64,000 bases of DNA from an uncultured bacterium (GTDB lineage: Bacteria; Patescibacteriota; Minisyncoccia; Minisyncoccales; RBG-13-42-11): the NCBI GenBank assembly GCA_963790795.1, contig CAWBPO010000001.1, positions 38,675 through 102,674 on the forward strand, read 5' to 3'. The notes beneath the pieces were generated by a model. The model did not search any database. It was not told the DNA's origin and was given only the letters and a program-made list of their open reading frames with translations. The translations under genes and the position numbers were made by a program. Each line of letters opens with the position of its first letter. Positions within the stretch are counted from its first letter, which is position 1. Below are positions 4,828 through 47,949 of the stretch, piece by piece.

Positions 4828-6978
4828 CTAAATTTTTTCCCAGCCCTCATCGTTTTCTTCGTTTTGCGTTTCTTGTTTTAAGAACACTTCTCTCGGTTTT
4901 GCTCCTTCGCCGGGCCCGATAATGCCCTTTTCCTCAAGAATATCCAGCAATCTGGCAGCTCTGGCATAGCCGATTCTCAGTCTTCTCTGTAAAAAAGAAG
5001 CAGAAGCTTTTTTTGTTTCAATGACTATTTTCTTCGCTTCCTCATACAAAGGGTCTTCTCCTCCGACATAGCCGTCAAAACTTTCGCCGTTCTTCATTTC
5101 CAAGGTCTTTTCCAAATCCTCTGCCAGATGGTTTTCAATTAAATCAGGTTCTTCAAGAGCTTCTTCTCTTTGGCTTTTAACATAATCTATCACTTTTCTC
5201 ACTTCTTTTTCAGAAGTATATGAGCCCTGGATTCTTTTCGGCTTTGACACTTCTGCTGAAATGAAAAGCAAATCACCAGCGCCCAATAGCTTCTCAGCGC
5301 CTGCCATATCCAGGACAGTTCTACTATCAACTTGCGAGGCGACCTGGAAAGTGACCCTGGAAGTAATATTTGCTTTTATTAAGCCGGTAATCACTTCAAC
5401 TGACGGCCTTTGAGTGGCAACGACCAAATGAATGCCCACCGCTCTTGCCATCTGAGCTAATCTTACTATTCCTGCTTCCATATCCCTTCCTTTTGCTGCC
5501 ATTAAATCTGCCAATTCGTCAATAATCAAAACAATGTAAGGCAAAGGATTTCCTCCTTCTTTTGTGATTTTGGCATTATAGCTGTCTATATTTCTTGAGC
5601 CGTTTCCGGACAGACTATCAAACCTTTTTTCCATTTCCATAATCAGCCACTTCAAAGCATTGATTGTCCTTTGCGGGTCAAAGATAACAGGAGTCAAAAG
5701 GTGAGGAAGGTCTTTGTAAGCTGAAAATTCAACTCTTTTGGGGTCAACCAGAATAAACCTCAAAGTTTCAGGAGAATTCTGGTAAAGCAGGCTTAAAATC
5801 AAACAATTCAAGAAAATGGTTTTACCTGTGCCAGTTGCTCCAGCTACTAAAAGATGGGGCATTCTTGCCAGATCCGCATAGCAAGAATTGCCTGAAACAT
5901 CCTTGCCCAAAACAATATTCAAGCCAGAAGCAGTGTTTTGGAACTGAGGATTAGCAACCAAATCTCTCAACCTTATCTGGCATCTTGTTTTATTGGGCAC
6001 CTCAATGCCAACCAGAGATTTGCCGGGAATCGGCGCTTCAATTCTGATCGGATGGCTGGCCAGAGCCAAAGAAAGATTGTTGGAAAGAGCGGTAATTTTG
6101 GAAAGCATTATGCCTTCAGCCGGCTTTAAGCTGTATTGGGTTACTGTCGGGCCGATATTTATTTCTGACATTTCCACTGGCAGGCCGAAGTTTTCCAAAG
6201 TTTTTTTAATAATTGCCGAATTAGTCACTGTGTCGCCGGCTGTCGGCTTTCCTTTGTCTGTTTCCAATAATTCCAAAGGCGGTCTTTTATACTGTTCTCC
6301 AGCCAGGACTTTGGCTGTTTTTTTGCTTTCAAGTTCCAAAACCGGCTCTTCTGCTTTTGAGTAAGTTTCTTTTACTCTCGGCTCAACTTCCCTGACTTTG
6401 AATTGGGGCAGGAATATTCTCTTTATTAAAGAAGGTTCTTTTTCTATTTCCAGCTTGTCAGTTTTCGGAGCTTCTTTAATGTCCGGCCTTTTGATTAAAT
6501 ACCAGAAAATCAAAAGCCCGATAACAATTACTCCGCTGAAAACTATTTTGGTCACTAAAAGCCCGAATAATTGCAAAAAAGGCCAGTTAAGAACAAATCC
6601 CAGCCAGCCACCTTGTTTTGGCTCTGAAGAAAAACTCTCAATAATCCCGGCTGTTCCGATAATCAAGATAAAAATAGCCAGGATTGTCGGACCGAAAAAC
6701 TTCTTGTATTTTGTATTGAAAAAGACGATTCCGGCCAAAACTAAAATCAAAGGAATGAAAAAAATGGCTCTGCCGATTAAAAAAGTGAGTCCCTTAATCA
6801 AAGCTGAACCAGCCCCTCCTGCCTTGTCAAAAAAACTCAAACCGACAATTATCGCCAAAATAAAAATTACTACGCCGGAAATCCACTTTTTAACCTCTTC
6901 GGGCAAGGAAAAAATACCGGGTTTTTTCTCTTTTGCCAGGAATTTTTTATTGTTTTTGTATTTTTTCTTCTTTGACAC
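4828..6978 (-). CDS. ftsK: DNA translocase FtsK/SpoIIIE
   Basis: N-terminal TM helices, LVAGATGTGKT motor domain, C-terminal gamma wHTH (LYEEAKKIV...FLQRRLRIGYARAARLLDILEEKGIIGP). Confidence 0.9.
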   Translation of the reverse strand: MSKKKKYKNNKKFLAKEKKPGIFSLPEEVKKWISGVVIFILAIIVGLSFFDKAGGAGSALIKGLTFLIGRAIFFIPLILVLAGIVFFNTKYKKFFGPTILAIFILIIGTAGIIESFSSEPKQGGWLGFVLNWPFLQLFGLLVTKIVFSGVIVIGLLIFWYLIKRPDIKEAPKTDKLEIEKEPSLIKRIFLPQFKVREVEPRVKETYSKAEEPVLELESKKTAKVLAGEQYKRPPLELLETDKGKPTAGDTVTNSAIIKKTLENFGLPVEMSEINIGPTVTQYSLKPAEGIMLSKITALSNNLSLALASHPIRIEAPIPGKSLVGIEVPNKTRCQIRLRDLVANPQFQNTASGLNIVLGKDVSGNSCYADLARMPHLLVAGATGTGKTIFLNCLILSLLYQNSPETLRFILVDPKRVEFSAYKDLPHLLTPVIFDPQRTINALKWLIMEMEKRFDSLSGNGSRNIDSYNAKITKEGGNPLPYIVLIIDELADLMAAKGRDMEAGIVRLAQMARAVGIHLVVATQRPSVEVITGLIKANITSRVTFQVASQVDSRTVLDMAGAEKLLGAGDLLFISAEVSKPKRIQGSYTSEKEVRKVIDYVKSQREEALEEPDLIENHLAEDLEKTLEMKNGESFDGYVGGEDPLYEEAKKIVIETKKASASFLQRRLRIGYARAARLLDILEEKGIIGPGEGAKPREVFLKQETQNEENDEGWEKI

Positions 6979-16560: not shown

Positions 16561-16583
16561 TATTGAGGACTCTCCTCAACAGC
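16561..16583. repeat. REP-like hairpin, family A (tTGAGGA-ctc-TCCTCAAcag)
   Basis: inverted repeat ttgagga/tcctcaa in intergenic region upstream of 14178..16514. Confidence 0.6.
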
Positions 16584-16595
16584 TTTATAATAGCT

Positions 16596-16985
16596 TTAAA
16601 TTATGTTTTCGTAATGGTTTAAACGTTCCATAGTATTATTATACCTTAAAACTACGCATACTGCATCCACTCGATAAGGTCCTTGCCATTTCTTCCACGT
16701 CGCATAAGCCCTCGCATTACCCCAAAGCTTTCTCAATTTTTTGTTATTAATAGTGTCTTCCGGCGTGCCGAAATTCTCTCCCTTCTTCGTCCTCACCTCC
16801 ACAAAGACCATTTCATTTCCTTTTTTAGCGACTAAATCAATTTCCGCATATTTTGTTTTGTAATTTTGCTCAATTATTTTATATCCTTTTTTCTCCAAAT
16901 ACTCCTTTGCAATTTCTTCTCCTATTTTCCCTGTCTCCAAATGTGCCTGTTGAGGTTCGTCCTCAACAGGCCTAAATTGATTCAT
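16596..16985 (-). CDS. yraN: YraN/UPF0102 family endonuclease
   Basis: GEEIAKEYLEKKGYKIIEQNYKTKYAEIDLVAKKGNEMVFVEVRTKK (PD-(D/E)xK-like UPF0102 pattern); N-terminal 20 codons read through a REP-like hairpin. Confidence 0.7.
   Translation of the reverse strand: MNQFRPVEDEPQQAHLETGKIGEEIAKEYLEKKGYKIIEQNYKTKYAEIDLVAKKGNEMVFVEVRTKKGENFGTPEDTINNKKLRKLWGNARAYATWKKWQGPYRVDAVCVVLRYNNTMERLNHYENII
16947..16969. repeat. REP-like hairpin, family A (CTGTTGAGG-ttcgt-CCTCAACAG)
   Basis: perfect 9-bp stem; at comM/yraN junction. Confidence 0.65.
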
Positions 16986-18507
16986 ATATTTTTGGCCGGT
17001 ACTGCAAGGTTTCGGCCATATGGGAAACAGTTATTTCCGATGCTCCCTCCAAATCAGCGATAGTGCGGGCGACTTTAATCATTTTCATATAAGACCTTGC
17101 GGATAATTGAAATTTCATACTCGCTTGCTTTAAAAGTTGCTCCACTTCCTTTATCAGTTTGCAGTATTTTTTAATGTGGCTGTTTTTCATCTGGGCGTTT
17201 GATTGGATAGGTTCTTCCTTAAAACGCTTTTCCTGTCTTTCCCTTGCTAAGATTACTCTTTTTCTGATTGTCTCCGACGATTCCAAGAATTCCGAGGCTT
17301 TTTGATTTTCTGAAAATTCTTCCACATCGACCGGCTGAACGGTAATATGCAAGTCAATTCTGTCCAAGATGGGACCAGAAATCCGCTTTTGATATTTTCT
17401 TATTTGGCGGGGAGTACAAACGCAATTTTTCTTCGGATGATTCAAATAACCGCAAGGACAGGGATTGGCAGAAGCCACAAGCATAAAATCCGCAGGATAT
17501 CTTACTATTTCTTTACTTCTTGAAATAGTAAGATAGCCTTCCTCCAGGGGCTGACGCATTGCCTCCATGACTTGCCTTGGAAACTCATTAAATTCATCGA
17601 GAAAGAGAACTCCTCTGTGAGCCAAACTTATTTCGCCGGGGTGCGGTCTTGTACCACCGCCGATTAGTCCTACTGGAGAAGCTGTGTGGTGCGGCACTCT
17701 GAATTGTCGATAAGTTATTACAGAGCCTCCTGGAGGAATATTGCCTGCTACAGAATATATTTTAGTTACTTCTAACGATTCTTCTTCGGTTAAAGGAGAC
17801 ATAATCCCCGGTAAAGCTCTGGCCAACATTGTTTTCCCGGAACCAGGACTTCCCACCATAATAATGTTATGGCCGCCGGCTGCAGCTATCTCTACTGCTC
17901 TCTTTGCTTGTTCTTGCCCTAAAATTTCTTTCATATCAAACTCTGCTGGAATAGGTAATCTGTCTTCAGGTTCTTTATAAACAGCAGGTTCAATCAATTT
18001 CCTTCCTAAAAAGTGCGAAATAAGTTGAAAAAGGTTTTCTACGGGGTATACTTTTATTCCTTTAATCACCGCTGCTTCGTTTGCTGAATCCTTGGGAACA
18101 AATAAATTTTTAAATCCTTTCTCTTTGGTAAAAAGCGCCAGTAGAAACGCTCCTTTTGTGTGCCTCAAAGAACCATCAAGTGATAATTCCCCGAAAAACA
18201 GAGATTCTTCAGGTATGTCAAATTGCAAAATGCTTCTCAAAATTCCCAAAGCAATCGGCAAATCGTAAAACGAACCTTCTTTTGGGATGTCGGCTGGAGC
18301 CAAATTGACGGTAATTTTCTTTGCCGGGAACTCAATACCCGAACTTAAAATTGCAGCCCTGACTCTCTCTTTGCTTTCATCCACCGCTTTGTCCGGTAAA
18401 CCGACAATCTCAAATCCAGGCAGGCCTCTGTTTGCCAAATTCACTTCAACATCCACTTTAATTGTTTCCAATCCCGAATTAGCGGCTGATGAAACCTTAA
18501 TTAACAT
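16972..18507 (-). CDS. comM: YifB/ComM family Mg-chelatase-like AAA+ ATPase
   Basis: N-terminal Lon-like domain, Walker A GSPGSGKT, C-terminal Mg_chelatase_C region. Confidence 0.85.
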   Translation of the reverse strand: MLIKVSSAANSGLETIKVDVEVNLANRGLPGFEIVGLPDKAVDESKERVRAAILSSGIEFPAKKITVNLAPADIPKEGSFYDLPIALGILRSILQFDIPEESLFFGELSLDGSLRHTKGAFLLALFTKEKGFKNLFVPKDSANEAAVIKGIKVYPVENLFQLISHFLGRKLIEPAVYKEPEDRLPIPAEFDMKEILGQEQAKRAVEIAAAGGHNIIMVGSPGSGKTMLARALPGIMSPLTEEESLEVTKIYSVAGNIPPGGSVITYRQFRVPHHTASPVGLIGGGTRPHPGEISLAHRGVLFLDEFNEFPRQVMEAMRQPLEEGYLTISRSKEIVRYPADFMLVASANPCPCGYLNHPKKNCVCTPRQIRKYQKRISGPILDRIDLHITVQPVDVEEFSENQKASEFLESSETIRKRVILARERQEKRFKEEPIQSNAQMKNSHIKKYCKLIKEVEQLLKQASMKFQLSARSYMKMIKVARTIADLEGASEITVSHMAETLQYRPKIYESI

Positions 18508-19417
18508 AATATTTATTGTCCTCTTGTTGGATAAAACCTTTCAATTGCATTAAAGACAGAGTGGTTCCAACTTTTGAAACTGAAATACCTAATATTCTGG
18601 CTAAAATATCTGCTTCTAATGGTTCTTTTTTTAAATGCTCAATAATTCTTCTTTCAATATCATCTTTTAACTGCCCATTAATCTGTTGAGGTCTAATCTG
18701 TTGAGGTCTAACCTCAACAGATTCTTTACTTGGTATAATTTTGTAAAAATTCAGAATATCCCTGGCTCCGGTCGCTACCTCAGCTCCTTCTTTAATAAGC
18801 TGTAACGTTCCTTTTGACACTTCGCTTGTGATAGGACCCGGCACGGCGAATATTTTCCTTCCGAATTTTTTGGCGAATTCTGCCGTAATCAGTGTTCCGC
18901 TGTTTAACCCCGCTTCTACAATTAAAACCGCTTTTGATAGCCCTGCCACTATCCTGTTTCTTTTGGGGTAAGTCCAGGTCGCTGGCGGAAATTTTCCCTC
19001 AAACTCGGAAATAATCAATCCTTTATTTTCCAGAATTTTATTGTAAAGCTCTTCTTGCTCTTCAGGATGTATTATATTTATTCCGCAAGGCATTACAGCT
19101 ATTGTCCTGCCACCTGCTTCTACTGTGGCCTTGTGAGCGGCTTCGTCTCCGCCATACATAAATCCGGAAACTATAGTCACGCCAGCCGCCGCGATTTCCG
19201 TTACCAATTGCTCTGTTATTTTCCTTCCGTAACTGGTCAAACGCCTTGAGCCGACCACTGATAAACAATTATCAAAAATCTTCCCATCCCAATCGCCCTT
19301 ATAATAAAGTTTTTCCGGCGCCTCCTTGCCGATTTTTCTTAACAATTCCGGATATCTTTTATCTTGTATATTTATTATATTTTCTTCTTTCATAGATTTG
19401 TTGAAGACCCTCCTCAA
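18497..19417 (-). CDS. dprA: DNA processing protein DprA (Rossmann + C-terminal wHTH), with an in-frame REP-hairpin insertion encoding VRPQQIRPQQINGQ
   Basis: GVTIVSGFMYGGDEAAHKATVEAGGRTIAVMPCGIN...; tandem hairpin element at 18683-18722 lies inside the linker. Confidence 0.85.
   Translation of the reverse strand: MRRVFNKSMKEENIINIQDKRYPELLRKIGKEAPEKLYYKGDWDGKIFDNCLSVVGSRRLTSYGRKITEQLVTEIAAAGVTIVSGFMYGGDEAAHKATVEAGGRTIAVMPCGINIIHPEEQEELYNKILENKGLIISEFEGKFPPATWTYPKRNRIVAGLSKAVLIVEAGLNSGTLITAEFAKKFGRKIFAVPGPITSEVSKGTLQLIKEGAEVATGARDILNFYKIIPSKESVEVRPQQIRPQQINGQLKDDIERRIIEHLKKEPLEADILARILGISVSKVGTTLSLMQLKGFIQQEDNKYYVN
18683..18722. repeat. REP-like hairpin, family A, 1.5 tandem copies (ctgttgaggtcta + atctgttgaggtctaacctcaacagat) inside dprA coding sequence
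   Basis: 10-bp stem ctgttgaggt/acctcaacag; in-frame with dprA. Confidence 0.65.
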
Positions 19418-38552: not shown

Positions 38553-40436
38553 TTAGTTGATTCTATCGTAGGCAGCCAAAAAGATCTGGAAAACTTTGAT
38601 CTTATTATCATCGTAATTGGGTTGAGATTTGACCTCTAACCACCAATCTGTCCCATCGGTAGGAATAGCAACTGTGCCAGTGGTTGTAGCTATTCCTGAA
38701 TCCAAAGCCGAGTTGTCGCAACCGCCTAAAGTGAAGGTGCTGTAAGCAGCGCCGGTAGTTGTGGCTACTCGCCAATCAGTAGTAGAAGCAAGAAGGAGAT
38801 TATCAGTATATCTGATGACGAATTTATGAATTCTGGTTGTTCCTGTCGTAGTTGCAATGAAGGGATAGTCTTGGATAGTCCGAGAAATCTTAACATAACT
38901 GGTAGTAGCGGTCTGGGCGGGCAAATCAAATCCGAAAATCGGAATCATTTCTCGCAAAATCTCGGTATTCTGTTTCCCAATTTCATATCCTGAGGCAGTT
39001 TGAATATAATCACCGCTTCCAAGAGTTATCTTTCCTGAGGCCGGGTCTAAAATAATATCATTGCTTCCGACTGAAGAAATGGTTGTCGTGGCGCCAGAAG
39101 TATACGTAACCGCACCTGTTCCTGTATATAAGGCTGAACTTACTCCTCCACTTCCACTTACTACCAAATTATAGGCAATGGTTGTGGTCCCGGCAGAATC
39201 GATAGTTAAAGCTGTCCCAGTGTAGTTGTCCACGATTGAGGAATCTTCCAATTCTGTAGAGTCTTTCCATCTGGAAACTTTTCCTGCCGTACCCGAACCA
39301 ATAACTGCGCCCGTACCCGTCGCAGCCTTCCAAGTCAAAACACCTGTTCCATCAGTGGTTAAAACATAATTATTGCTGCCAGTATTTGGGGGCAAATAAT
39401 AAGTGGTATTTGCCACCATTGTTGAAGTAGGATTAAAAATGACTTCATAATCAGTTCCGCCTTGTTCTGAGTAAATTCTGAGTTGACCGCTTGTCCCTGC
39501 TATTCCGGTTCTGATTGCGCCCTTCACCTCGAGAGGATAAGTTAAACTATTGGTTCCTATTCCTAATCGATTAGTGCTGTCATCCCAGAAAAAATTGGCA
39601 TTATCTTCGCTAAGAACACCGCCTGCCCCGGCGAAAATAACCCCGCCAGTAGTAGGATTAAACCAGGTTGGAATTCCAGTGCCTCCAGAAACTAATGCCT
39701 GACCAGAAGTACCAGCAGCAGAGATTCCGTAGGTTGAACCTGTCCCATAAACCATTCCTCCAGCAGTGGGAGAAGTGGATGTTCCAGTTCCACCATAAGT
39801 CGTAGCCAAAGGGCTAGTTAATCCAATTACTCCTGCTGCTGATAAGGTAATAGGGGCTGTAGATGAAACTGCCACTGTTCCTGAAGTATCAGGAAGGGTG
39901 TAAGTTCTCGCTCCGGTTAAATTAGCAATAGTTAATTGTCCTCTGCCTTCAGCATCGTAAAACCATAAACTCGTTCCCTGGGTTCCGCCAGAGGTAAAAG
40001 CATCTCCTGAGGTAACATTGCCAACTGCAGTGATATCTCCCACTCCGCCTGTACTCGTGGCTAACTTCCAAGTAAGTTGGTCCCCTGCTTGCCAAGTCAA
40101 AACATAGTCGGCACTTGGAGGATTCACATCGTGCGCAGGAAGATAATAAGTTTTACTTGTAGATATTGTTGTCGTTGCTTCCAGTCCAACATAATAACTT
40201 GTGCCTCCGGTAAATTTCAAGGCTTGGTTTGCTCCAGAAATAATAATATCTTTAGTCACGTTTTGAACTTCCTCCATTACTATTTGTCCTGTGTCAATGT
40301 TGTAGTACATATTGGCCGCAAAAAGAACTCCGGCAGCAATCAACACTGAAGAACCGATAAACAGAAAAGAGGCAAATCTTGTTCCTTTAGCCAGTTTTAA
40401 TTTCGATTCAAAGAATTTTCTAAATGGATTTTTCAT
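38553..40436 (-). CDS. signal-anchored Gly/Thr-rich tail-fibre-like surface protein with conserved C-terminal domain
   Basis: 627 aa; N-term anchor ...VLFAANMYYNIDTG (same motif as 34217..38413), GIGTNS/GIGTT motifs, C-terminal domain paralogous to that of 40542..42761 (IPIFGFDLPAQTATTSYVKISR / IKVFQIFLAAYDRI). Confidence 0.6.
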   Translation of the reverse strand: MKNPFRKFFESKLKLAKGTRFASFLFIGSSVLIAAGVLFAANMYYNIDTGQIVMEEVQNVTKDIIISGANQALKFTGGTSYYVGLEATTTISTSKTYYLPAHDVNPPSADYVLTWQAGDQLTWKLATSTGGVGDITAVGNVTSGDAFTSGGTQGTSLWFYDAEGRGQLTIANLTGARTYTLPDTSGTVAVSSTAPITLSAAGVIGLTSPLATTYGGTGTSTSPTAGGMVYGTGSTYGISAAGTSGQALVSGGTGIPTWFNPTTGGVIFAGAGGVLSEDNANFFWDDSTNRLGIGTNSLTYPLEVKGAIRTGIAGTSGQLRIYSEQGGTDYEVIFNPTSTMVANTTYYLPPNTGSNNYVLTTDGTGVLTWKAATGTGAVIGSGTAGKVSRWKDSTELEDSSIVDNYTGTALTIDSAGTTTIAYNLVVSGSGGVSSALYTGTGAVTYTSGATTTISSVGSNDIILDPASGKITLGSGDYIQTASGYEIGKQNTEILREMIPIFGFDLPAQTATTSYVKISRTIQDYPFIATTTGTTRIHKFVIRYTDNLLLASTTDWRVATTTGAAYSTFTLGGCDNSALDSGIATTTGTVAIPTDGTDWWLEVKSQPNYDDNKIKVFQIFLAAYDRIN

Positions 40437-40504
40437 AGTTATTTAATTATATTAGTTAATTATTTTTTCGACCTTTATAATTTTTTATATTTTTTTCGAC
40501 CTTT

Positions 40505-40533
40505 CCGAGTACATAACTTAGTTATGTGCTCGG
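40505..40533. repeat. perfect-type palindrome CCGAGTACATAA-cttag-TTATGTGCTCGG (empty-site homolog of the inverted repeats flanking the GIY-YIG gene)
   Basis: 12-bp arms 11/12 complementary; intergenic between the two tail-fibre-like genes. Confidence 0.7.
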
Positions 40534-40541
40534 TGAATTTA

Positions 40542-42761
40542 TTAAATTTGGTCATAAATTAAAAGAAAAATGCTGAAAATTCGAATGGTATTTCCCGAAG
40601 GAACTTTCACTTTTAGCTGCCAATTGTTTTCTGGGGGTTGGATAAAAATACTCAAATTAGGGATACCTTCATCAAGAGAAGAGAGATTCTGGCCAGCAAA
40701 ATAAAATTCGATATCAGTTCCGCCAGTCAAATCAACCAGCCAAGTAGAACTAGCTGAAGTCGAGATACCGTCAGCAAAATTTGTTAAAAAAGAAAATTTT
40801 CTGGTTGCCCCCGGAAGGATATCGGGTAAAGTAGCATTCAAAGTAGAGGTGGAAATTTCTCTTGAAACGGCGACAAATTCGGTGGAAGTGGTTTGGGCTG
40901 GAACCGAATAGATAAAAATTGGGATGCTGGCTTGAAAAACCTTCTCGCCAGATTTTCTTACTGTCGAGTCGGAAGCTCCTGAAATAAAAGTCGCTCCTTT
41001 TACGGTAGCTGAAGAGGCGTCAAAAAGATTAACGCCACCAGCCAACCTAATTTCACCAGTTAAAGAATTTATTACCATTGTTTTTGAGGATAAAAGTTCA
41101 GACGAGGTTGAGTTAATTAAAAACCTTAAATAATTATTATTGTCGTATTCCAAAGTTAATTGAGGAAAAGTGGAAGTAGCTATAGTAAGAGGACCTTCAA
41201 AGCGCCCATCTCCGGCAACGGTGAGAGTAGCCAAGGTGGAGGTAGTGCCAATTCCTATTGCGGAGCCAGTATTATAAAGAAAATAGTCGGCCAGCCAATT
41301 TGTGCCATTATGTCTTAAAGTTTGACCAGCTGTTCCGGAAGGAAGAACGCCTGAAGGTGCGGATTGCCAAGTTCCAAAACCGAAAGCATCTGAGGTTAAA
41401 ATATAACCTGAAGTGGCATTAGTCGGAAATTGAAAACCAAGCATCTTTATTGTTCCAGCCACATCTAACTTTTGAGATGGAGTGGTGGTGCCTATCCCGA
41501 TATTTCCACCACTTTGAGAAACAATAGAATTTCCTAAAGCGGTTTCCCCGGTCCAGACCGAAAAATAATTGGAAGAGCCCGAACCGCTAATACCAGCAAA
41601 ACCTCCTCCTCCCCCTCCTCCTCCCACCGGCAAAGTGCTTAAACATCTGCCGCCTGCCAAATTAGTACAAATATCACCGGTCGCCTGAATTCTTCCGTTA
41701 ACATCGAGAGCATAAACCGGATCTTTTTTCCCTATACCAACATTCCCTGTCGAAGCGATGGTAATTGAAATTCCCTGATAAAGGTCAACTATAGAAGAAT
41801 CATCAATTCTTTGAGGACTAACAAATTTGGCTAATCTATTGAGAGTACCGCCAGGAGTAAGAACTTCTTCACCTAAACCAACGCAATTACCAGTAGAAAG
41901 ACAAACTATGCCTGATTGATTGGGGAAAGTATAAATCCTGTCAGTAGTGAGAGTAGTCAAAGTAAGAAGCCCTTTAAAACCTCCTTTGGTTATAATAAAA
42001 GCAGGAGAGCTTACGGATTCTTTCACATTTAAAGAACCATTAATAGCCGTTTCGGCATTGATAGTAAGATAAGGTTCAATAGGAGGGGTAACAAGAATTT
42101 CTTCTTGGGGAGGAGAAGGTGACAATTGGGTTAATTTTCTAACTTCGCTGCCTATGCTAGCTAAGAAATAGGAAATTGAATCTACAAAATTAATTTTTGC
42201 GTTTATGTTTATAAAGAAAACAATTAAACCAAAAATTAAAACCATAAATATCGGTTTGAGAAAAGAGGATAATCTGAAATGTGGTTTCAGTTTTTTCTCG
42301 GGTTGAACTTCTTCCTTGATCCCAGAAGGTAAACGAGAAGGTGTGTCATATACATGTATAGGCAAAGACGGAGCAAAAGGCGTTTCAAATAACCTTTCTT
42401 CTAAACTTTCTTTCTTTTTCTCTTCTTTTTCTTTCTCTTCTTTTATTTCTCTTTTTATTGTTTGAATGCTTTTTCCAGCTTTTATTTTCCTATTAATTTC
42501 AATTAAAAGCGCTACCGCATCTTCTGGATAAGCTCCTTCTGGATGATTATTATTAAAAGATTTTCTTTGGGCGTGAGGTAAAAGTCCGATTTTTGTATAA
42601 TAACGCAAGCGGTTCCGAGGATCTCCATTCCCAAAAACAACTCCTAATTTTTGAGCCCGGTTAATAATTTCATCAATACTTATTAAATTTTCATCTTCTC
42701 TCCCCATATACTTATTGAACGTGGAGGCTTGACAAATCTTTTGGTTTCTTTTAAACTTCAA
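40542..42761 (-). CDS. membrane protein: N-terminal cytoplasmic MerR-like HTH, single TM helix, extracellular Gly-rich tail-fibre-like domain with shared C-terminal domain
   Basis: N-term ...ISIDEIINRAQKLGVV...RNRLRYYTKIGLLPHAQR...GAYPEDAVALLIEINRKIKAGKSIQTIKREI (MerR-type pattern LRYY..IGLL.P.R...G.Y.EDAV.LL), TM LKPIFMVLIFGLIVFFININ, Gly9 tract, GIGTTTP motifs; track start is TTG, ATG start likely at MGREDEN (~42707). Confidence 0.55.
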   Translation of the reverse strand: MKFKRNQKICQASTFNKYMGREDENLISIDEIINRAQKLGVVFGNGDPRNRLRYYTKIGLLPHAQRKSFNNNHPEGAYPEDAVALLIEINRKIKAGKSIQTIKREIKEEKEKEEKKKESLEERLFETPFAPSLPIHVYDTPSRLPSGIKEEVQPEKKLKPHFRLSSFLKPIFMVLIFGLIVFFININAKINFVDSISYFLASIGSEVRKLTQLSPSPPQEEILVTPPIEPYLTINAETAINGSLNVKESVSSPAFIITKGGFKGLLTLTTLTTDRIYTFPNQSGIVCLSTGNCVGLGEEVLTPGGTLNRLAKFVSPQRIDDSSIVDLYQGISITIASTGNVGIGKKDPVYALDVNGRIQATGDICTNLAGGRCLSTLPVGGGGGGGGFAGISGSGSSNYFSVWTGETALGNSIVSQSGGNIGIGTTTPSQKLDVAGTIKMLGFQFPTNATSGYILTSDAFGFGTWQSAPSGVLPSGTAGQTLRHNGTNWLADYFLYNTGSAIGIGTTSTLATLTVAGDGRFEGPLTIATSTFPQLTLEYDNNNYLRFLINSTSSELLSSKTMVINSLTGEIRLAGGVNLFDASSATVKGATFISGASDSTVRKSGEKVFQASIPIFIYSVPAQTTSTEFVAVSREISTSTLNATLPDILPGATRKFSFLTNFADGISTSASSTWLVDLTGGTDIEFYFAGQNLSSLDEGIPNLSIFIQPPENNWQLKVKVPSGNTIRIFSIFLLIYDQI
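42728..42756 (+). promoter_or_regulatory. consensus sigma70-like promoter (TTGACA - 17 bp - TAAACT) on + strand inside the 5' end of the - strand gene
   Basis: exact -35 hexamer, 17-bp spacer; would fire into the 650-bp AT-rich intergenic region. Confidence 0.3.
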
Positions 42762-42909
42762 ATTAGAAGGCCCGCCATCCCGCCATACAAATTATGGTGA
42801 GACAAAAAAGCGACTAAAAAACTTTTTTCCAACATTTGGCCGTTTTGTGCGGACCTTCTTTTTTTTATACAATTAAATATAGATTCTATATAAATCCTTC
42901 TGAGAAATT

Positions 42910-42930
42910 TTTCCCGTCACGGGAAATTTT
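42910..42930 (+). terminator. hairpin TTTCCCG-tca-CGGGAAA followed by TTTT (intrinsic-terminator-like, + strand)
   Basis: 7-bp perfect stem + U tract; no annotated + strand gene upstream. Confidence 0.35.
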
Positions 42931-43415
42931 GAGATTAGTTCATAATATAAATACCAAAAGGCTCTGTCAAGGGTAAAATTGTGGAAAACTCTAACAACTA
43001 AACAGTGCAAGAATCCCTATATTCTATATTCCAGATTCCCATTCATAATTCTTCATTCTTGATTCATTATTTATTCTCAATTCTCATTTATTTTTTTAAA
43101 AAACATAAAAACATAGAATTATATACAAAGTTTGAAAATTGAACCATATCTAACTTTGCACGTTCTTATATATAAAGTTTGAAAACTGAACCAGAGATAT
43201 ATTATTATCTTTAAACAATTTAAACAACCTCGGGCTTTGTTCAAAACATACTTTAATAGTTCAATTTTTAAACTTTTTTAAAATATACCAAATTTTAGCG
43301 TGCAGGTTTATCAAAAAGATTGGTTTAAAAATTATACACATAGTTTGAAAAACGAACTAAATATGTTATAATTTTAAATGAGACGCTTTTAGCTTTTAAA
43401 CATATAAAATTATCT

Positions 43416-44141
43416 ATGCCTAACGAAATAAAATGCCCAAAATGTTTTAAATCAATTTTTTGGAAAACCAATGATGATCGTTTGAAATGCAAAAACTGCC
43501 ATTATATTTTTACCTTAAGACCCAATCCCCTTAATATTCCAGACAAAATATTAAGCGAGGTTATTTCCGAATTCCTTTTAGAACATTCAACAAATATTAT
43601 TCTAGAAAGAGTAAATATTTCCAAATATAAACTTTTAAAAGTGTTATTTTTTTTAAGAATATTAATAACTAAAGACATTCCCGACAATCTCCGTGAAATA
43701 ATAAAGTTTGATTCGGAAAATTTTACATTAGATAATAAAATCAAAAATCCAATTATCGGCATTCTTTACAAAGAAGAAAAAGTTTATGCTAAAGTTTTAT
43801 CAAATATTAAGCCCGAAGATTTAAAGCTTTTCCTTGGGGCTCAAGAAAAAAAGGAAGTAATTAACTATTCCGAAAATTGGCAAAAATATATCGGCTTGGC
43901 GTTTAGGGGCCGTCTTTATAAAATAACTCCCTCGCAAAATAAAAATCATATTGATGCCCTTGAAACATTCTGGGGATATTTAAAAATGAAGCTATCCTCA
44001 AAAGGAGGAATTCGTAAAGAAAGATTACCTCTTTACCTCGGAGAATATATCTGGAGATACAATCACAGAAAACTAATCTTAAAAGAACAAGGAAAATGCT
44101 TATTAAATCTTGTTTTTCAATATTTTAGGTCCGAAAATTAA
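43416..44141 (+). CDS. compact IS1595-family (ISXO2-like) transposase-like protein with N-terminal Zn ribbon
   Basis: CPKC...KCKNC Zn-ribbon; C-terminal HIDALETFWGYLKMKLSSKGGIRKERLPLYLGEYIWRYNHRKL matches IS1595 DDE C-terminal signature (TNtiEgfWs.lKr...G.yh.vs.khL..Yl.Ef.fRyN.R); only 241 aa, central DDE region divergent (YSENW for YTDEW). Confidence 0.55.
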   Translation: MPNEIKCPKCFKSIFWKTNDDRLKCKNCHYIFTLRPNPLNIPDKILSEVISEFLLEHSTNIILERVNISKYKLLKVLFFLRILITKDIPDNLREIIKFDSENFTLDNKIKNPIIGILYKEEKVYAKVLSNIKPEDLKLFLGAQEKKEVINYSENWQKYIGLAFRGRLYKITPSQNKNHIDALETFWGYLKMKLSSKGGIRKERLPLYLGEYIWRYNHRKLILKEQGKCLLNLVFQYFRSEN

Positions 44142-44157
44142 AAAAGAGAGTGCCTAA

Positions 44158-44241
44158 TAGCGAATCGAAGATTCGATATATCAAACTCCGGTTTGCTATA
44201 GCGAATCTAAGACTAGATATATCAAACTCCGGTTTGCTATA
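44158..44241. repeat. two tandem copies of a ~43-bp element (gcgaa-hairpin-atatatcaaactccggtttgctata)
   Basis: copy 1 hairpin cgaatc-gaa-gattcg; copy 2 partially degenerate; immediately downstream of the IS1595-like gene. Confidence 0.65.
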
Positions 44242-44299
44242 AGGTTAAAGGTTAAAAAGATTTGGTTGTTTTTTCCATTTTTTTATATATAATAAATAA

Positions 44300-45710
<1,411 letters not shown>

Positions 45711-45711
45711 A

Positions 45712-45979
45712 CCGAGCACATAATGTACTATGTTTATCTCATAAGAAATTTAAAAACTGGCAATACCTACATAGGCTCAACTAATGATTTAAAAAGGAGA
45801 CTCCAAGAACATAGAAATAAAAAGCCAGATTTAATTTATTATGAGGCCTACAAAGATGAAATAGATACAAGAGAAAGAGAAAAGAAATTAAAAAAACGCG
45901 ACCAAACAGTCCGAAGATTAAAAGAGAGATTAAAGTATAGCCTTAGAAAACCGAGATATTAAAACTTATGTACTCGGTA
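45712..45979. mobile_element. GIY-YIG gene bounded by 12-bp inverted repeats CCGAGCACATAA (45712-45723) and TTATGTACTCGG (45968-45979): putative miniature GIY-YIG insertion element in the atp operon
   Basis: arms match the 40505-40533 palindrome; ORF start ATG lies within/just after the left arm (cataATGtac). Confidence 0.45.
45723..45962 (+). CDS. small GIY-YIG nuclease-superfamily protein (YhbQ/UPF0213-like)
   Basis: MYYVYLIRNLKTGNTYIGSTNDLKRRLQEH (GIY-...-YIG, R and E catalytic residues); gene sits inside the loop of a 12-bp inverted repeat. Confidence 0.75.
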   Translation: MYYVYLIRNLKTGNTYIGSTNDLKRRLQEHRNKKPDLIYYEAYKDEIDTREREKKLKKRDQTVRRLKERLKYSLRKPRY

Positions 45980-45986
45980 AAAATCA

Positions 45987-46481
45987 ATGAAGGAAATTTT
46001 TGAAAACTTGGTTAAAAAAATAATCACTAAAGATGATTTTTTACTTTTTATTGAGGAAATAAACCTACTTGAGCAGATTGTTTTTAAAAACATAGAGGTA
46101 CCTCTTTGGAAAAGAGTAAAAGGAAAGGTAGGGGAAAAATTTAGAAATGAACTTCAAAAATTAGAAGAAGAGGGCATAATCTCGGCATCTCCTAATCAAC
46201 AATTTTCTTTTTTTGATGAACTCAAAAATTATCTCCAAAAAATACCTCAGGTTAAATTAGAAATCGCCTTCGAACCTTCTGAAGATTTTCTTTTGAGAAT
46301 TAAGAAATGGTTTAAAGAAGAAAATCATCAAGAGGTAATTTTGGACATAACCATAAATCCAAAAATTGTTGGTGGAGCAATAATAGAATATCAAGGAAAT
46401 TGGCGCGATTTTTCATTAGCAAAAGAAATAGATAAATTAACCCCCCACCAAAATTTGGTGGGGGGCAAGTATTATGAGTGA
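45987..46481 (+). CDS. atpH: F-type ATP synthase subunit delta (OSCP)
   Basis: C-terminal ILDITINPKIVGGAIIEYQGNWRDFSLAKEIDKL typical of delta C-terminus. Confidence 0.65.
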   Translation: MKEIFENLVKKIITKDDFLLFIEEINLLEQIVFKNIEVPLWKRVKGKVGEKFRNELQKLEEEGIISASPNQQFSFFDELKNYLQKIPQVKLEIAFEPSEDFLLRIKKWFKEENHQEVILDITINPKIVGGAIIEYQGNWRDFSLAKEIDKLTPHQNLVGGKYYE

Positions 46482-47949
46482 TTTTAAGAGCTTTCTGGAA
46501 AAAACAGGAGAAATAGGTCATATCGTCGGCCTCAGTTACTCCATTGTTTATATCTCTGGCCTTCCTAGCCTGAAAACAGGGGAAATGGTAATCACCGAGA
46601 ATGGAGAAAAAGGCATGGTCCATGAATTAGATAAAGAGATAGCTGAAGTTTTAATGTTTGATACCGGAAAATTAAAAGTTGGGGAAAGGGTAGTTAGAAC
46701 CGACAAGCCCTTTCAAATTCCAGTCTCTCAAGGATTTTTAGGACGAATAATTGACCCCCTTTGCCAGCCAATTGATGGTTTGGGTCCTGTATTTGGAGAA
46801 AAAAAATATTTAAGCATTCAAAGAGAAGCTCCCGGTATCACCCAGAGAGTAAGAGTAAACAAACCCCTGGAGACCGGAGTGATGGTAGTGGATTTATTAG
46901 TCCCTATTGGATATGGTCAAAGAGAATTGGTTATTGGCGACGCAAAAACTGGCAAAACTACTTTTCTTTTGCAAACCGTGGTCAATCAAGCAAAAGAAGG
47001 AATAATCTGTATTTATGTTGGGATTGGAAAAGAAACCTCGGCAGTAAAGATTATTGAAGATTATTTAAAAGAAATGAATGTTTTTGATAAAACAGTGATG
47101 GTAATTGCTACCTCCGAAAATCCCTCTACCATAAATTACCTATCCCCTTTTTCTGGAATGACTATTGCTGAATACTTCCGTGATAGAGGCGAGAAGGTAT
47201 TAATTATTTTTGATGATCTTACTAGCCACGCTAAATTTTATCGGGAAATCTCTCTATTGGTAAAAAGGGTTCCTGGTAGAGCCTCCTATCCTGGGGATAT
47301 CTTTCATATCCAGGCAGCAGTAGTTGAACGAGCCGGAAATATCAAAACTCCAGATAATAAAGAGGTAAGCATTACTGCTTTACCGGTAGCCGAAACTTTA
47401 GAAAATGATATCTCAGGTTATATTCAAACTAATCTGATGGCGATGACCGATGGCCATATTTTTTTTGACATTAATTATTTTAGAGAAAGTAAAAGACCGG
47501 CTATTAATGCTTTTCTTTCGGTCTCAAGGGTAGGGAATCAAACAAAAGAACCTTTAGATAGAGCTTTAGCCGGCTGGATAAAAAGAAATTTAGTTGAATA
47601 TCAAAGAGTAATGGAGCTTTCCCAGTTTGGAGTAGAATTATCTTTGGAAACTCAAAAACTTCTCGACCTGGGAAAGAAATTAGAGATTCTCTTTAATCAG
47701 GGTCCAAAAACAATAATTCCTCGTTCCCTCCAATTATTTCTTTTTGGCTTACTATTTTTCGGTTTTTGGGAAGATAAACCGCAAAATGTAATGAAAGTAG
47801 AAATTGATGAAATATTGAAAAAATATAAAGAAGGAGTTTTCTTTGAGGTAGAAAGTGAAATTAAAAAAATAAAAAATCTAGAGGAACTTAAAAGTTTTAT
47901 TGGAGAAATTATTCCAAAAGTAAAAGAAATTTTATATCTTCCTCTTTAA
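46474..47949 (+). CDS. atpA: F-type ATP synthase subunit alpha
   Basis: Walker A GDAKTGKT (alpha-type GD..TGKT), RELVIGD, N-terminal beta-barrel; 491 aa. Confidence 0.85.
   Translation: MSDFKSFLEKTGEIGHIVGLSYSIVYISGLPSLKTGEMVITENGEKGMVHELDKEIAEVLMFDTGKLKVGERVVRTDKPFQIPVSQGFLGRIIDPLCQPIDGLGPVFGEKKYLSIQREAPGITQRVRVNKPLETGVMVVDLLVPIGYGQRELVIGDAKTGKTTFLLQTVVNQAKEGIICIYVGIGKETSAVKIIEDYLKEMNVFDKTVMVIATSENPSTINYLSPFSGMTIAEYFRDRGEKVLIIFDDLTSHAKFYREISLLVKRVPGRASYPGDIFHIQAAVVERAGNIKTPDNKEVSITALPVAETLENDISGYIQTNLMAMTDGHIFFDINYFRESKRPAINAFLSVSRVGNQTKEPLDRALAGWIKRNLVEYQRVMELSQFGVELSLETQKLLDLGKKLEILFNQGPKTIIPRSLQLFLFGLLFFGFWEDKPQNVMKVEIDEILKKYKEGVFFEVESEIKKIKNLEELKSFIGEIIPKVKEILYLPL

Follow-up and report, generated by a model that had tools for sequence, protein, structure and literature searches.

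We have analysed a short open reading frame (ORF) of the GIY-YIG family that lies, enclosed by the two arms of an inverted repeat, within an ATP synthase operon encoded in a 64-kb stretch of DNA (contig CAWBPO010000001.1; hereafter the window). The window has a GC content of 39%, and its gene content and the relatives of its proteins allow us to assign it to the Patescibacteria, or Candidate Phyla Radiation (CPR). The features of the locus are listed in Table 1. The left arm, L, begins 2 nt past the stop codon of the upstream gene and the start of atpH lies 9 nt past the right arm, R; the spacers measure 12 nt from the upstream stop codon to the GIY-YIG start codon and 24 nt from the GIY-YIG stop codon to the start codon of atpH. 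As an earlier reading made from the letters of the window (the sequence-only reading) had stated, the insertion leaves the neighbouring ORFs undisrupted and L overlaps the start codon; the right arm, however, sits 2 nt upstream of the 45968-45979 given there. The same reading named the host junction atpF-atpH. The second name stands, whereas the first depends on position and on architecture, an N-terminal hydrophobic segment followed by a long charged segment, and the gene has no Pfam match to ATP-synt_B; we refer to it as the b-like gene, and its orthologue directly adjoins atpH in relatives. No second GIY-YIG copy was found in the window by tblastn.

Table 1. Features of the GIY-YIG locus and of the ORF-less hairpin in the window
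Feature	Coordinates	Strand	Sequence, match or basis
Left arm, L	45712..45723	+	CCGAGCACATAA; last base is the A of the GIY-YIG ATG
GIY-YIG ORF, 79 aa, single domain	45723..45962	+	Pfam PF01541, E=3e-11
Degenerate second left arm, L'	45951..45962	+	CCGAGATATTAA; 3' end of the ORF
Right arm, R	45966..45977	+	TTATGTACTCGG; complement of L
Inserted unit (approximate): A + L + ORF + L' + R + T	45711..45978	+	Filled versus empty junctions
ORF-less (solo) hairpin	40505..40533	none	Between two minus-strand genes
Upstream host gene, ATP synthase subunit b-like	45045..45710	+	Position and architecture only
Downstream host gene, atpH (ATP synthase delta/OSCP)	45987..46481	+	Pfam OSCP, E=1e-8; NCBIfam delta subunit

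The same arms occur at one other place in the window, where the sequence-only reading had correctly seen them as a tight hairpin with 5 nt between them (CCGAGTACATAA-cttag-TTATGTGCTCGG), 8 nt past the stop codon of the minus-strand gene 40542..42761. Read on the minus strand, both arms of this solo hairpin are letter-for-letter those of the GIY-YIG site. With one mismatch allowed, the arm pattern CCGAGYACATAA is present four times in the window, at the GIY-YIG site and at the solo only, where 0.27 copies are expected, and none of 100 shuffles reached four copies. As single-stranded DNA (ssDNA), the solo is predicted to fold into a stem of 13 pairs closed by a 3-nt loop (dG -11.1 kcal/mol, z = -5.8). 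The arms of the GIY-YIG site pair at 11 of 12 positions, because each site carries one transition with respect to the family consensus CCGAGCAC/GTGCTCGG; in R the change is a private one, G to A at position 7, the corresponding arm of the 97%-identical relative L083 being TTATGTGCTCGG. We considered and rejected the solo as an intrinsic terminator: it is terminator-like on the plus strand only, antisense to both minus-strand neighbours, and on the sense strand of these genes the stem is followed by AAAGGTCGAAAAAAA, not by a U-run. A search of Rfam families over positions 40000-46600 (E<=1) gave nothing relevant.

The right arm has a second partner. L' provides the last three codons of the ORF, for P-R-Y, together with its stop codon, and has decayed to 8 of 12 matches in the window; it makes R one half of a second, local hairpin that has decayed, and in the predicted ssDNA fold of the window copy R pairs with L' and not with the distant L, a long-range stem not being predicted as the dominant fold. 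This 3' hairpin is nearly intact in two relatives, L084 (CCAAGCACATAA-aaag-TTATGTGCTCGG) and L087 (CCGAGCATATAA-taaga-TTATGTGCTCGG), in which L' encodes P-S-T-stop and P-S-I-stop, respectively. All three loci have the layout L - ORF - L' - loop (3-5 nt) - R, that is, half a hairpin, a gene and a complete hairpin, and the solo at 40505-40533 looks like the 3' hairpin of this subfamily standing alone. On the contig of L084 we also observed a gene for a Y1_Tnp (IS200/IS605-type) transposase (2188-2892), about 0.8 kb from the GIY-YIG element of the window subfamily, and a second, unrelated GIY-YIG gene of 90 aa (5904-6176).

The comparison of the spacers between the b-like gene and atpH in relatives, which the sequence-only reading had proposed, separates filled from empty junctions. 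In L083, which shares 97% nucleotide identity with the window, the junction is filled with the same arrangement and has a perfect right arm. In L089-L092 (AtpH 91% identical) it reads TAA-CCCAAAT-ATG, with 7 nt between the genes, and in L093-L095 (84%) TAA-TAAG-ATG, with 4 nt; in L096 (76%) the stop and start codons overlap (0 nt), and in L097 (69%) there is an unrelated 120-nt spacer without a hairpin. None of these empty junctions carries the arms. Because relatives whose AtpH is 69-91% identical have no hairpin at this position, arms and gene must have arrived together, as an inserted unit of about 45711-45978, and there was no pre-existing hairpin to act as a target there. Of the two routes that had been suggested, mobilization of the gene together with its palindrome thus fits this locus, and insertion of the gene into a palindrome already in place does not.

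This junction is one of several. Copies with 83-87% identity to that of the window belong to unrelated operons, where they follow rplJ, precede a pilin-like gene or lie near recO, and at several other orthologous intergenic sites the element is present in some genomes and absent in others. A recent intragenomic burst was ruled out by the 68-84% identity of copies in the same metagenome-assembled genome (MAG), and a viral origin by the IMG/VR viral contigs, in which both the solo and the gene-sized arm patterns gave 0 matches.

The ATP synthase operon shows further signs of such traffic. In L093 (1539-1847), and also in L094 and L095, a different GIY-YIG gene of 102 aa with its own inverted repeat (CCCAGTAATACAACTTCCA / TGGAAGTTGATATACTGGG) is located one junction further upstream than the window insertion, between a 254-aa gene and the b-like gene. 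Inside the 3' end of the window atpH, at 46441-46465, there is a perfect palindrome, CCCCCCACCAAA-A-TTTGGTGGGGGG, encoding the tail ..TPHQNLVGGKYYE; it is shared with L089 (AtpH 91%) and absent from L093, L096 and L097, in which AtpH is 7-8 aa shorter. The arms are similar to those around more distant GIY-YIG subfamilies (L066, L071, L078), and the palindrome has the look of a second insertion into this operon, here in-frame. A partial IS1595-like DDE transposase ORF that scores below family cut-offs precedes the ATP synthase genes, at 43416-44141; in L096 and L097 that position is occupied by an ORF of the same Pfam family, so the transposase ORF of the window is old rather than a recent arrival. 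No ATP synthase family model matched the ORFs at 44300-45061 and 45045-45710, upstream of atpH, nor is there a recognizable a or c subunit gene ahead of them in this stretch, and the genes for the membrane sector of this operon are either very divergent or located elsewhere.

The enclosure of the gene by the arms is a property of the family. Hundreds of relatives of about 75 aa exist, with 60-97% identity and almost all from Patescibacteria, and a full HMMER scan at E<=1e-10 gave 503 clusters (50% identity). For the flanking analysis 80 genomic loci were fetched. In most of them the ORF lies between aCCGAGCACATAA, with 0-5 nt separating it from the ATG, and TTATGTGCTCGGt, which follows the stop codon within 0-5 nt; among the first 40 homologous loci, most have an arm equal to L ahead of the start codon. 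The inverted arms span 11-29 bp across loci. In 64 of 87 homologues from other Patescibacteria genomes, the ORF is enclosed by an ungapped stem whose length is 12 bp or more (median 16, maximum 28-29), compared with 33 of 1500 random windows of the same size (Fisher p = 2e-69) and 21 of 792 long ORFs in the same DNA (p = 8e-59), that is, 2-3% of the controls. The sequence-only reading had conceded that its case would fall if the arms were a common repetitive extragenic palindromic (REP) sequence and the position of GIY-YIG genes were unrelated to them. The arms are indeed common, but the position of the gene within them is precise.

The two arms also change together. In a set of 36 loci anchored at the outer base, covering 21 pairs, 93.6% of the cells are paired, and 13 of the 21 pairs show changes on both sides that are compensatory in the Watson-Crick sense, as in CCGAGCACTCAA/TTGAGTGCTCGG, CCCAGCAC/GTGCTGGG and CCCCGCAC/GTGCGGGG. 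None of 500 shuffles reached the observed values, and slid registers were 31-43% paired. The outer 16 pairs (560 cells) contain no G-U pair and no one-sided change, and such strictness suggests that the constraint operates at the level of DNA and not of RNA. The innermost pairs, which often contain the ATG and the last codon with the stop codon, vary by locus and yet remain complementary, which points to pairing or templated copying and not to two independent protein-binding sites. More distant subfamilies (35-55% identity) are enclosed by very different arms (CCCGCACACCAA, CCCCACACCCAGC, ACCCCGTTAGAAACT), and the nearest neighbour of a protein has the same arm type in 43 of 65 cases, where 14.8 are expected.

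Hairpins without a gene are abundant. A metagenome scan with the pattern CCGAGCACATAA-N(0-30)-TTATGTGCTCGG found at least 120 stretches with identical-arm solos, with loops of 0-30 nt. The 80 solo loci that were loaded hold 89 solos, with loops mostly of 4 nt (range 1-24 nt) and flanks that are not conserved, and the solos themselves occur in either orientation; in the 577 kb of these solo-selected loci there are five GIY-YIG homologues. ORF-less shells also occur at loci selected for their GIY-YIG gene; some have tight loops, and others contain 31-102 nt of unrelated sequence. That the arms are conserved while the spacing between them varies agrees with recognition of a folded stem rather than of a duplex operator. 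The possibility that solos sit at the apex of host hairpins, as nested palindromes, was examined and not upheld as a general rule: a flanking stem of at least 7 bp accompanies 10 of the 89 solos, compared with 2.6% of controls, a mild enrichment.

Other palindromes were noticed around these elements. Within about 90 nt on either side of the GIY-YIG element in L005, L011, L015, L019, L020, L042, L043 and other loci there is a conserved intergenic mosaic of three hairpins, in the order AAAGG..hairpin A..CCTTTA, the CCGAGCAC palindrome in the middle, and TGCTCAAT..hairpin C..AAATTT..ATTGGC-ATG. This mosaic recurs between unrelated genes in many Patescibacteria genomes, in the manner of bacterial interspersed mosaic elements (BIMEs); in the sub-lineage of the window the GIY-YIG ORF has the opposite orientation relative to its TAAAGG flank. 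A third palindrome family, CTGTTGAGG..CCTCAACAG, is found in the window at 16563-16582, 16945-16971 and 18695-18723. Two of its copies are in-frame in coding sequence, one at the N-terminus of a 129-aa ORF (16596..16985, minus strand; YraN-like by eye, ..RPVEDEPQQA..) and the other in the C-terminal part of the ORF 18497..19417 (minus strand; DprA-like by eye, ..VEVRPQQIRPQQ..), and one copy lies just 3' of the 129-aa ORF; these in-frame palindromes are reminiscent of the Rickettsia palindromic elements.

What kind of protein is carried between the arms? The sole Pfam match above the curated cut-off in the 79-aa protein is the GIY-YIG core, and the AlphaFold model (pLDDT 84) shows a beta-beta-alpha-beta arrangement followed by a long basic helix, that is, a bare catalytic core of 75 aa without a DNA-binding domain. 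Among the family-invariant positions that the window protein keeps are Y5, Y16, R25/R26, E29, H30 and E53. Values of dN/dS between homologous copies are 0.04-0.14 and therefore indicate purifying selection that keeps the protein functional. Homing-endonuclease models of PHROG and PADLOC match residues 1-33 weakly, the NCBIfam model grpIintron_endo matches residues 4-33 below its cut-off, and models of defence systems gave weak N-terminal matches and nothing more. The nearest solved structures are the UPF0213 proteins BH0048 and EF2693, the catalytic domain of I-TevI, and Slx1; no solved Ssn structure was found for comparison by sequence or fold. The best tblastn match in a plasmid collection is a 94-aa Shinella protein flanked by SRM hairpins (CGTCATCCTCGGG-cttga-CCCGAGGATCC), and a Neisseria gonorrhoeae record in the same collection holds an SsnA orthologue amid NTS repeats. 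Aligned with hhalign, the CPR family matches the Ssn alignment with a probability of 97.3% (E=1.6e-11) over 59 columns, and its profile scores 52 against Neisseria meningitidis SsnA alone and 39.5 against Escherichia coli YhbQ. These matches make it probable that the protein is an Ssn-related GIY-YIG nuclease of minimal size with a single domain.

SsnA, a GIY-YIG protein of 94 aa with one domain, binds the NTS hairpin in ssDNA and cuts upstream of it, and it is inactive on duplex DNA and on RNA (Chenal et al., Nat Commun 2025, PMC11893778). The loop of its substrate is dispensable, as split hairpins with arbitrary extensions at the loop position are still cut, and ssnA homologues are typically flanked by repeats on both sides, in an NTS-ssnA-NTS arrangement described as 'identical to' an insertion sequence (PMC11893778). 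We propose, with moderate confidence, that the element in the window is an Ssn-type module of about 270 bp, composed of a nuclease and its cognate hairpin, which behaves as an invasive unit. The anatomy of the element, its recurrence, the covariation of its arms at the DNA level, its filled and empty alleles, the varied genomic contexts of near-identical copies, the purifying selection on its ORF and its homology with Ssn are what we observe, and from them we infer the nuclease activity, hairpin recognition, ssDNA specificity, copying mode and mobility mechanism of the CPR module. In this proposal, the module would have entered the junction between the b-like gene and atpH in one piece, in a recent ancestor of this genome, to be read through with the ATP synthase operon, and the hairpin at 40505-40533 is an ORF-less copy of its repeat. 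Whenever the DNA became single-stranded, during replication, uptake of transforming DNA or repair, the arms would pair, leaving the ORF as a large loop in the full module and a tight loop in the solo copies; the nuclease may then bind the arm stem and nick beside it, and repair or copying by the host may propagate or maintain both the module and the solos.

A bolder version, in which the unit of about 270 bp would be an autonomous mobile element moving via ssDNA by hairpin-guided nicking and host repair, is one that we put forward only tentatively and think rather doubtful. If true, it would to our knowledge be the smallest protein-coding mobile element known in bacteria. Such an element would enter operon junctions and spare the neighbouring genes any polar effect, since only a few nt separate its start and stop codons from the stop and start codons of the host genes, and the abundant ORF-less hairpins would be its non-autonomous derivatives.

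Several observations weigh against our proposal. GIY-YIG nucleases only hydrolyse DNA, so a route of integration is not thereby explained, and the nuclease role attributed to the CPR clade depends on its homology to Ssn proteins, from which it departs in lacking an insert of about 10 residues and, at the C-terminus, the invariant W/R/K/N/W/D/L residues of the conserved W..R.WK...N..W.DL block of the Ssn clade (CDD cd10448). The published SRM consensus, HGTCWYN(0-2)YYVSBRHN(0-5)WNVSBRGN(0-2)RNCYNB, which recovers 9 sites in the locus of Neisseria and 4 in that of Shinella as positive controls, matches 0 times in the window and 4 times in 1.04 Mb of CPR loci. It is possible that the window copy is inactive or decaying, because there is a mismatch between its arms and because A49T and G60D, two substitutions private to its protein, fall where the family alignment shows at least 90% conservation; these are the two nonsynonymous protein-coding changes relative to L083, next to zero synonymous ones. 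The long-range stem of this copy is moreover absent from the predicted minimum-energy ssDNA fold. There is no consistent target-site duplication across loci, with a possible TAAA on either side in the window, and the co-divergence of arms and proteins could reflect mere physical linkage. Finally, copies within one genome are just 68-84% identical, and this divergence, together with the low dN/dS, fits long-retained or domesticated genes no less than active selfish ones.

That last point leads to the alternative in which the nuclease and the dispersed hairpins form a domesticated host function, for instance the control of incoming ssDNA in transformation, the enclosing arms being merely the nearest copies of the recognition site of the nuclease. 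SsnA and NTS offer a precedent, as they have been proposed to restrict or shape the integration of incoming ssDNA during natural transformation in Neisseria (PMC11893778), and DprA-like and ComM-like competence genes are encoded in the window. The purifying selection, the age of the same-genome copies and the excess of solos over genes, 89 to 5 in the solo-selected loci, would all agree with a resident function. We regard it as a serious but less likely alternative, since presence and absence at the same junction between relatives of 91-97% similarity is invasive behaviour, the element recurs in unrelated operons, a second GIY-YIG subfamily independently entered the same operon, and a host enzyme has no need of an ORF precisely enclosed by a stem.

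Classical homing, in which the enzyme would cut the duplex at ORF-less palindromes and repair of the double-strand break would copy the ORF into the loop, was implicit in the term 'homing-endonuclease-like' of the sequence-only reading. The GIY-YIG domain and the weak matches at residues 1-33 agree with it, as do the ORF between the arms and the existence of empty hairpins with identical arms, some of them on long stems whose apex could be a target. The term is not supported, however: the protein is a catalytic core without a DNA-binding domain, the region 40000-46600 contains no intron according to Rfam, the arm patterns are missing from viral contigs, and the closest characterized relatives are the Ssn proteins. 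In addition, the empty allele of this locus has no palindrome to be cut, a solo with matching arms stays unfilled 5 kb away, arms of 12 bp offer very little homology for repair, and the stem often contains the start and stop codons, unlike cargo dropped into a host hairpin. We consider homing improbable.

Hairpin control of the translation of homing endonucleases is known in phage T4, and the arms might similarly act in the operon mRNA, sequestering the start codon of a potentially toxic nuclease or forming a processing or stability site, in which case the DNA palindrome would be a by-product and the gene would thus be tolerated in an essential operon. In favour of this, the element has the same orientation as the operon and only tiny spacers separate it from its neighbours, the stems frequently contain the ATG and the stop region, and the upstream neighbour is co-oriented with the GIY-YIG ORF in 47 of 74 cases, the downstream one likewise, according to crude gene calls. 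An RNA stem would nevertheless be expected to tolerate the G-U pairs and one-sided changes that are missing from the outer pairs, and it does not account for the conservation, across distant lineages, of the arm sequence itself beyond its pairing, nor for solos without any ORF in either orientation. The solo of the window is terminator-like only antisense to its neighbours and has no Rfam match, and the long-range stem of the window copy is missing from the predicted ssDNA fold. There is thus little to recommend the RNA stem as the primary explanation, although it could persist as an additional layer. As to a chance juxtaposition of a generic REP-like repeat and an unrelated small gene, the arms are a common dispersed repeat and have only two sites in the window, but enclosure in 64 of 87 homologues, covarying pairs and a unit gained whole at the junction make it extremely improbable.

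Why does such a small module matter? Ssn nucleases were described only in 2025, and the spread of modules that join a gene to its repeat, as well as their roles outside Neisseria, is a wider question. The Patescibacteria clade extends the association between nuclease and hairpin to a smaller protein and to a repeat unseen by the published search pattern, and it provides clean filled and empty alleles at one operon junction in close relatives, which are lacking in the published Ssn work. These alleles define the inserted unit to within a few bases, and mobility and cleavage are thus testable with short oligonucleotides. If the proteins are active, the many pairs of arms and proteins, in 503 clusters, would be candidate new specificities for ssDNA tools. 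The ATP synthase operon also illustrates that an essential operon can be invaded repeatedly by palindromic elements and that the streamlined genomes of CPR bacteria, of about 0.5 Mb, tolerate this. We found no prior description of GIY-YIG genes associated with palindromes, hairpins or repeats in CPR in the literature; one paper merely lists GIY-YIG genes among those horizontally transferred from Patescibacteria.

How does the element compare with known systems? By the criteria used for insertion sequences and miniature inverted-repeat transposable elements (MITEs), terminal inverted repeats are present, whereas no DDE, HUH, Ser or Tyr transposase is encoded, only a GIY-YIG hydrolase. Like Correia, ERIC and Rickettsia palindromic elements and other MITEs, which leave the genes at their insertion sites intact, it belongs to a set of short dispersed palindromes, some of them in-frame in coding sequence; those elements are geneless, their enzymes being encoded elsewhere or unknown, while here a candidate enzyme lies inside the palindrome. 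There is also a similarity with RAYT/REPIN and IS200/IS605 systems, as in all of them a small nuclease gene lies between inverted copies of a dispersed palindromic repeat, with ssDNA hairpins as the presumed substrate, and RAYT/REPIN systems also have many ORF-less copies elsewhere, a likeness of layout only. They differ in that the enzyme is a hydrolytic GIY-YIG protein here and an HUH/Y1 protein with a covalent intermediate there, and in that the unit of about 270 bp is far smaller and has its gene inside one stem, not between complete REP units.

With the GIY-YIG homing endonucleases (I-TevI, I-BmoI and the Seg proteins) the element shares the catalytic fold and motif, polymorphism of presence and absence, an insertion that spares the function of the host gene and even an ORF looped out of a stem, as occurs in group I introns; it differs from them in having no linker or DNA-binding domain, intron, phage context or palindrome in the empty allele. 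The UPF0213/YhbQ and Slx1 GIY-YIG proteins are products of single-copy, housekeeping-type genes. The basic C-terminal helix of the CPR proteins is similar to that of YhbQ, although the profile score of YhbQ is below that of SsnA (39.5 and 52, respectively).

The closest comparison is with the Ssn systems themselves, although the main text of PMC11893778 mentions neither Patescibacteria or CPR nor a gene inside a hairpin. In both cases a single-domain GIY-YIG protein of fewer than 100 aa, without a DNA-binding domain, is encoded by a gene bracketed by inverted hairpin-forming repeats that are also dispersed as ORF-less copies. The CPR proteins differ in their length of about 75 aa and in a basic tail that resembles YhbQ, and the flanks of the CPR solos have no conserved orienting sequence such as CGTCA. 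A hairpin resembling the canonical SRM (CGTCATCCTGAG...CTCAGGATGAC) was observed in L016 (8567-8707), at an intergenic site that holds a GIY-YIG element in other genomes; repeats resembling the classical Ssn repeats therefore also exist in CPR genomes. In layout, most CPR loci differ from Ssn systems in having a single stem split by the gene, often with the start and stop codons inside the stem, but the loci can be arranged in a series: the full hairpin-gene-hairpin order is found in the CPR loci L030 and L028 as in Neisseria and Shinella, the half-hairpin-gene-hairpin order in the window, L084 and L087, and the half-gene-half order in most CPR loci. This series links the element to the NTS-ssnA-NTS arrangement; in our reading, the element is a reduced version of the Ssn layout whose minimal protein is related to Ssn but distinct from it.

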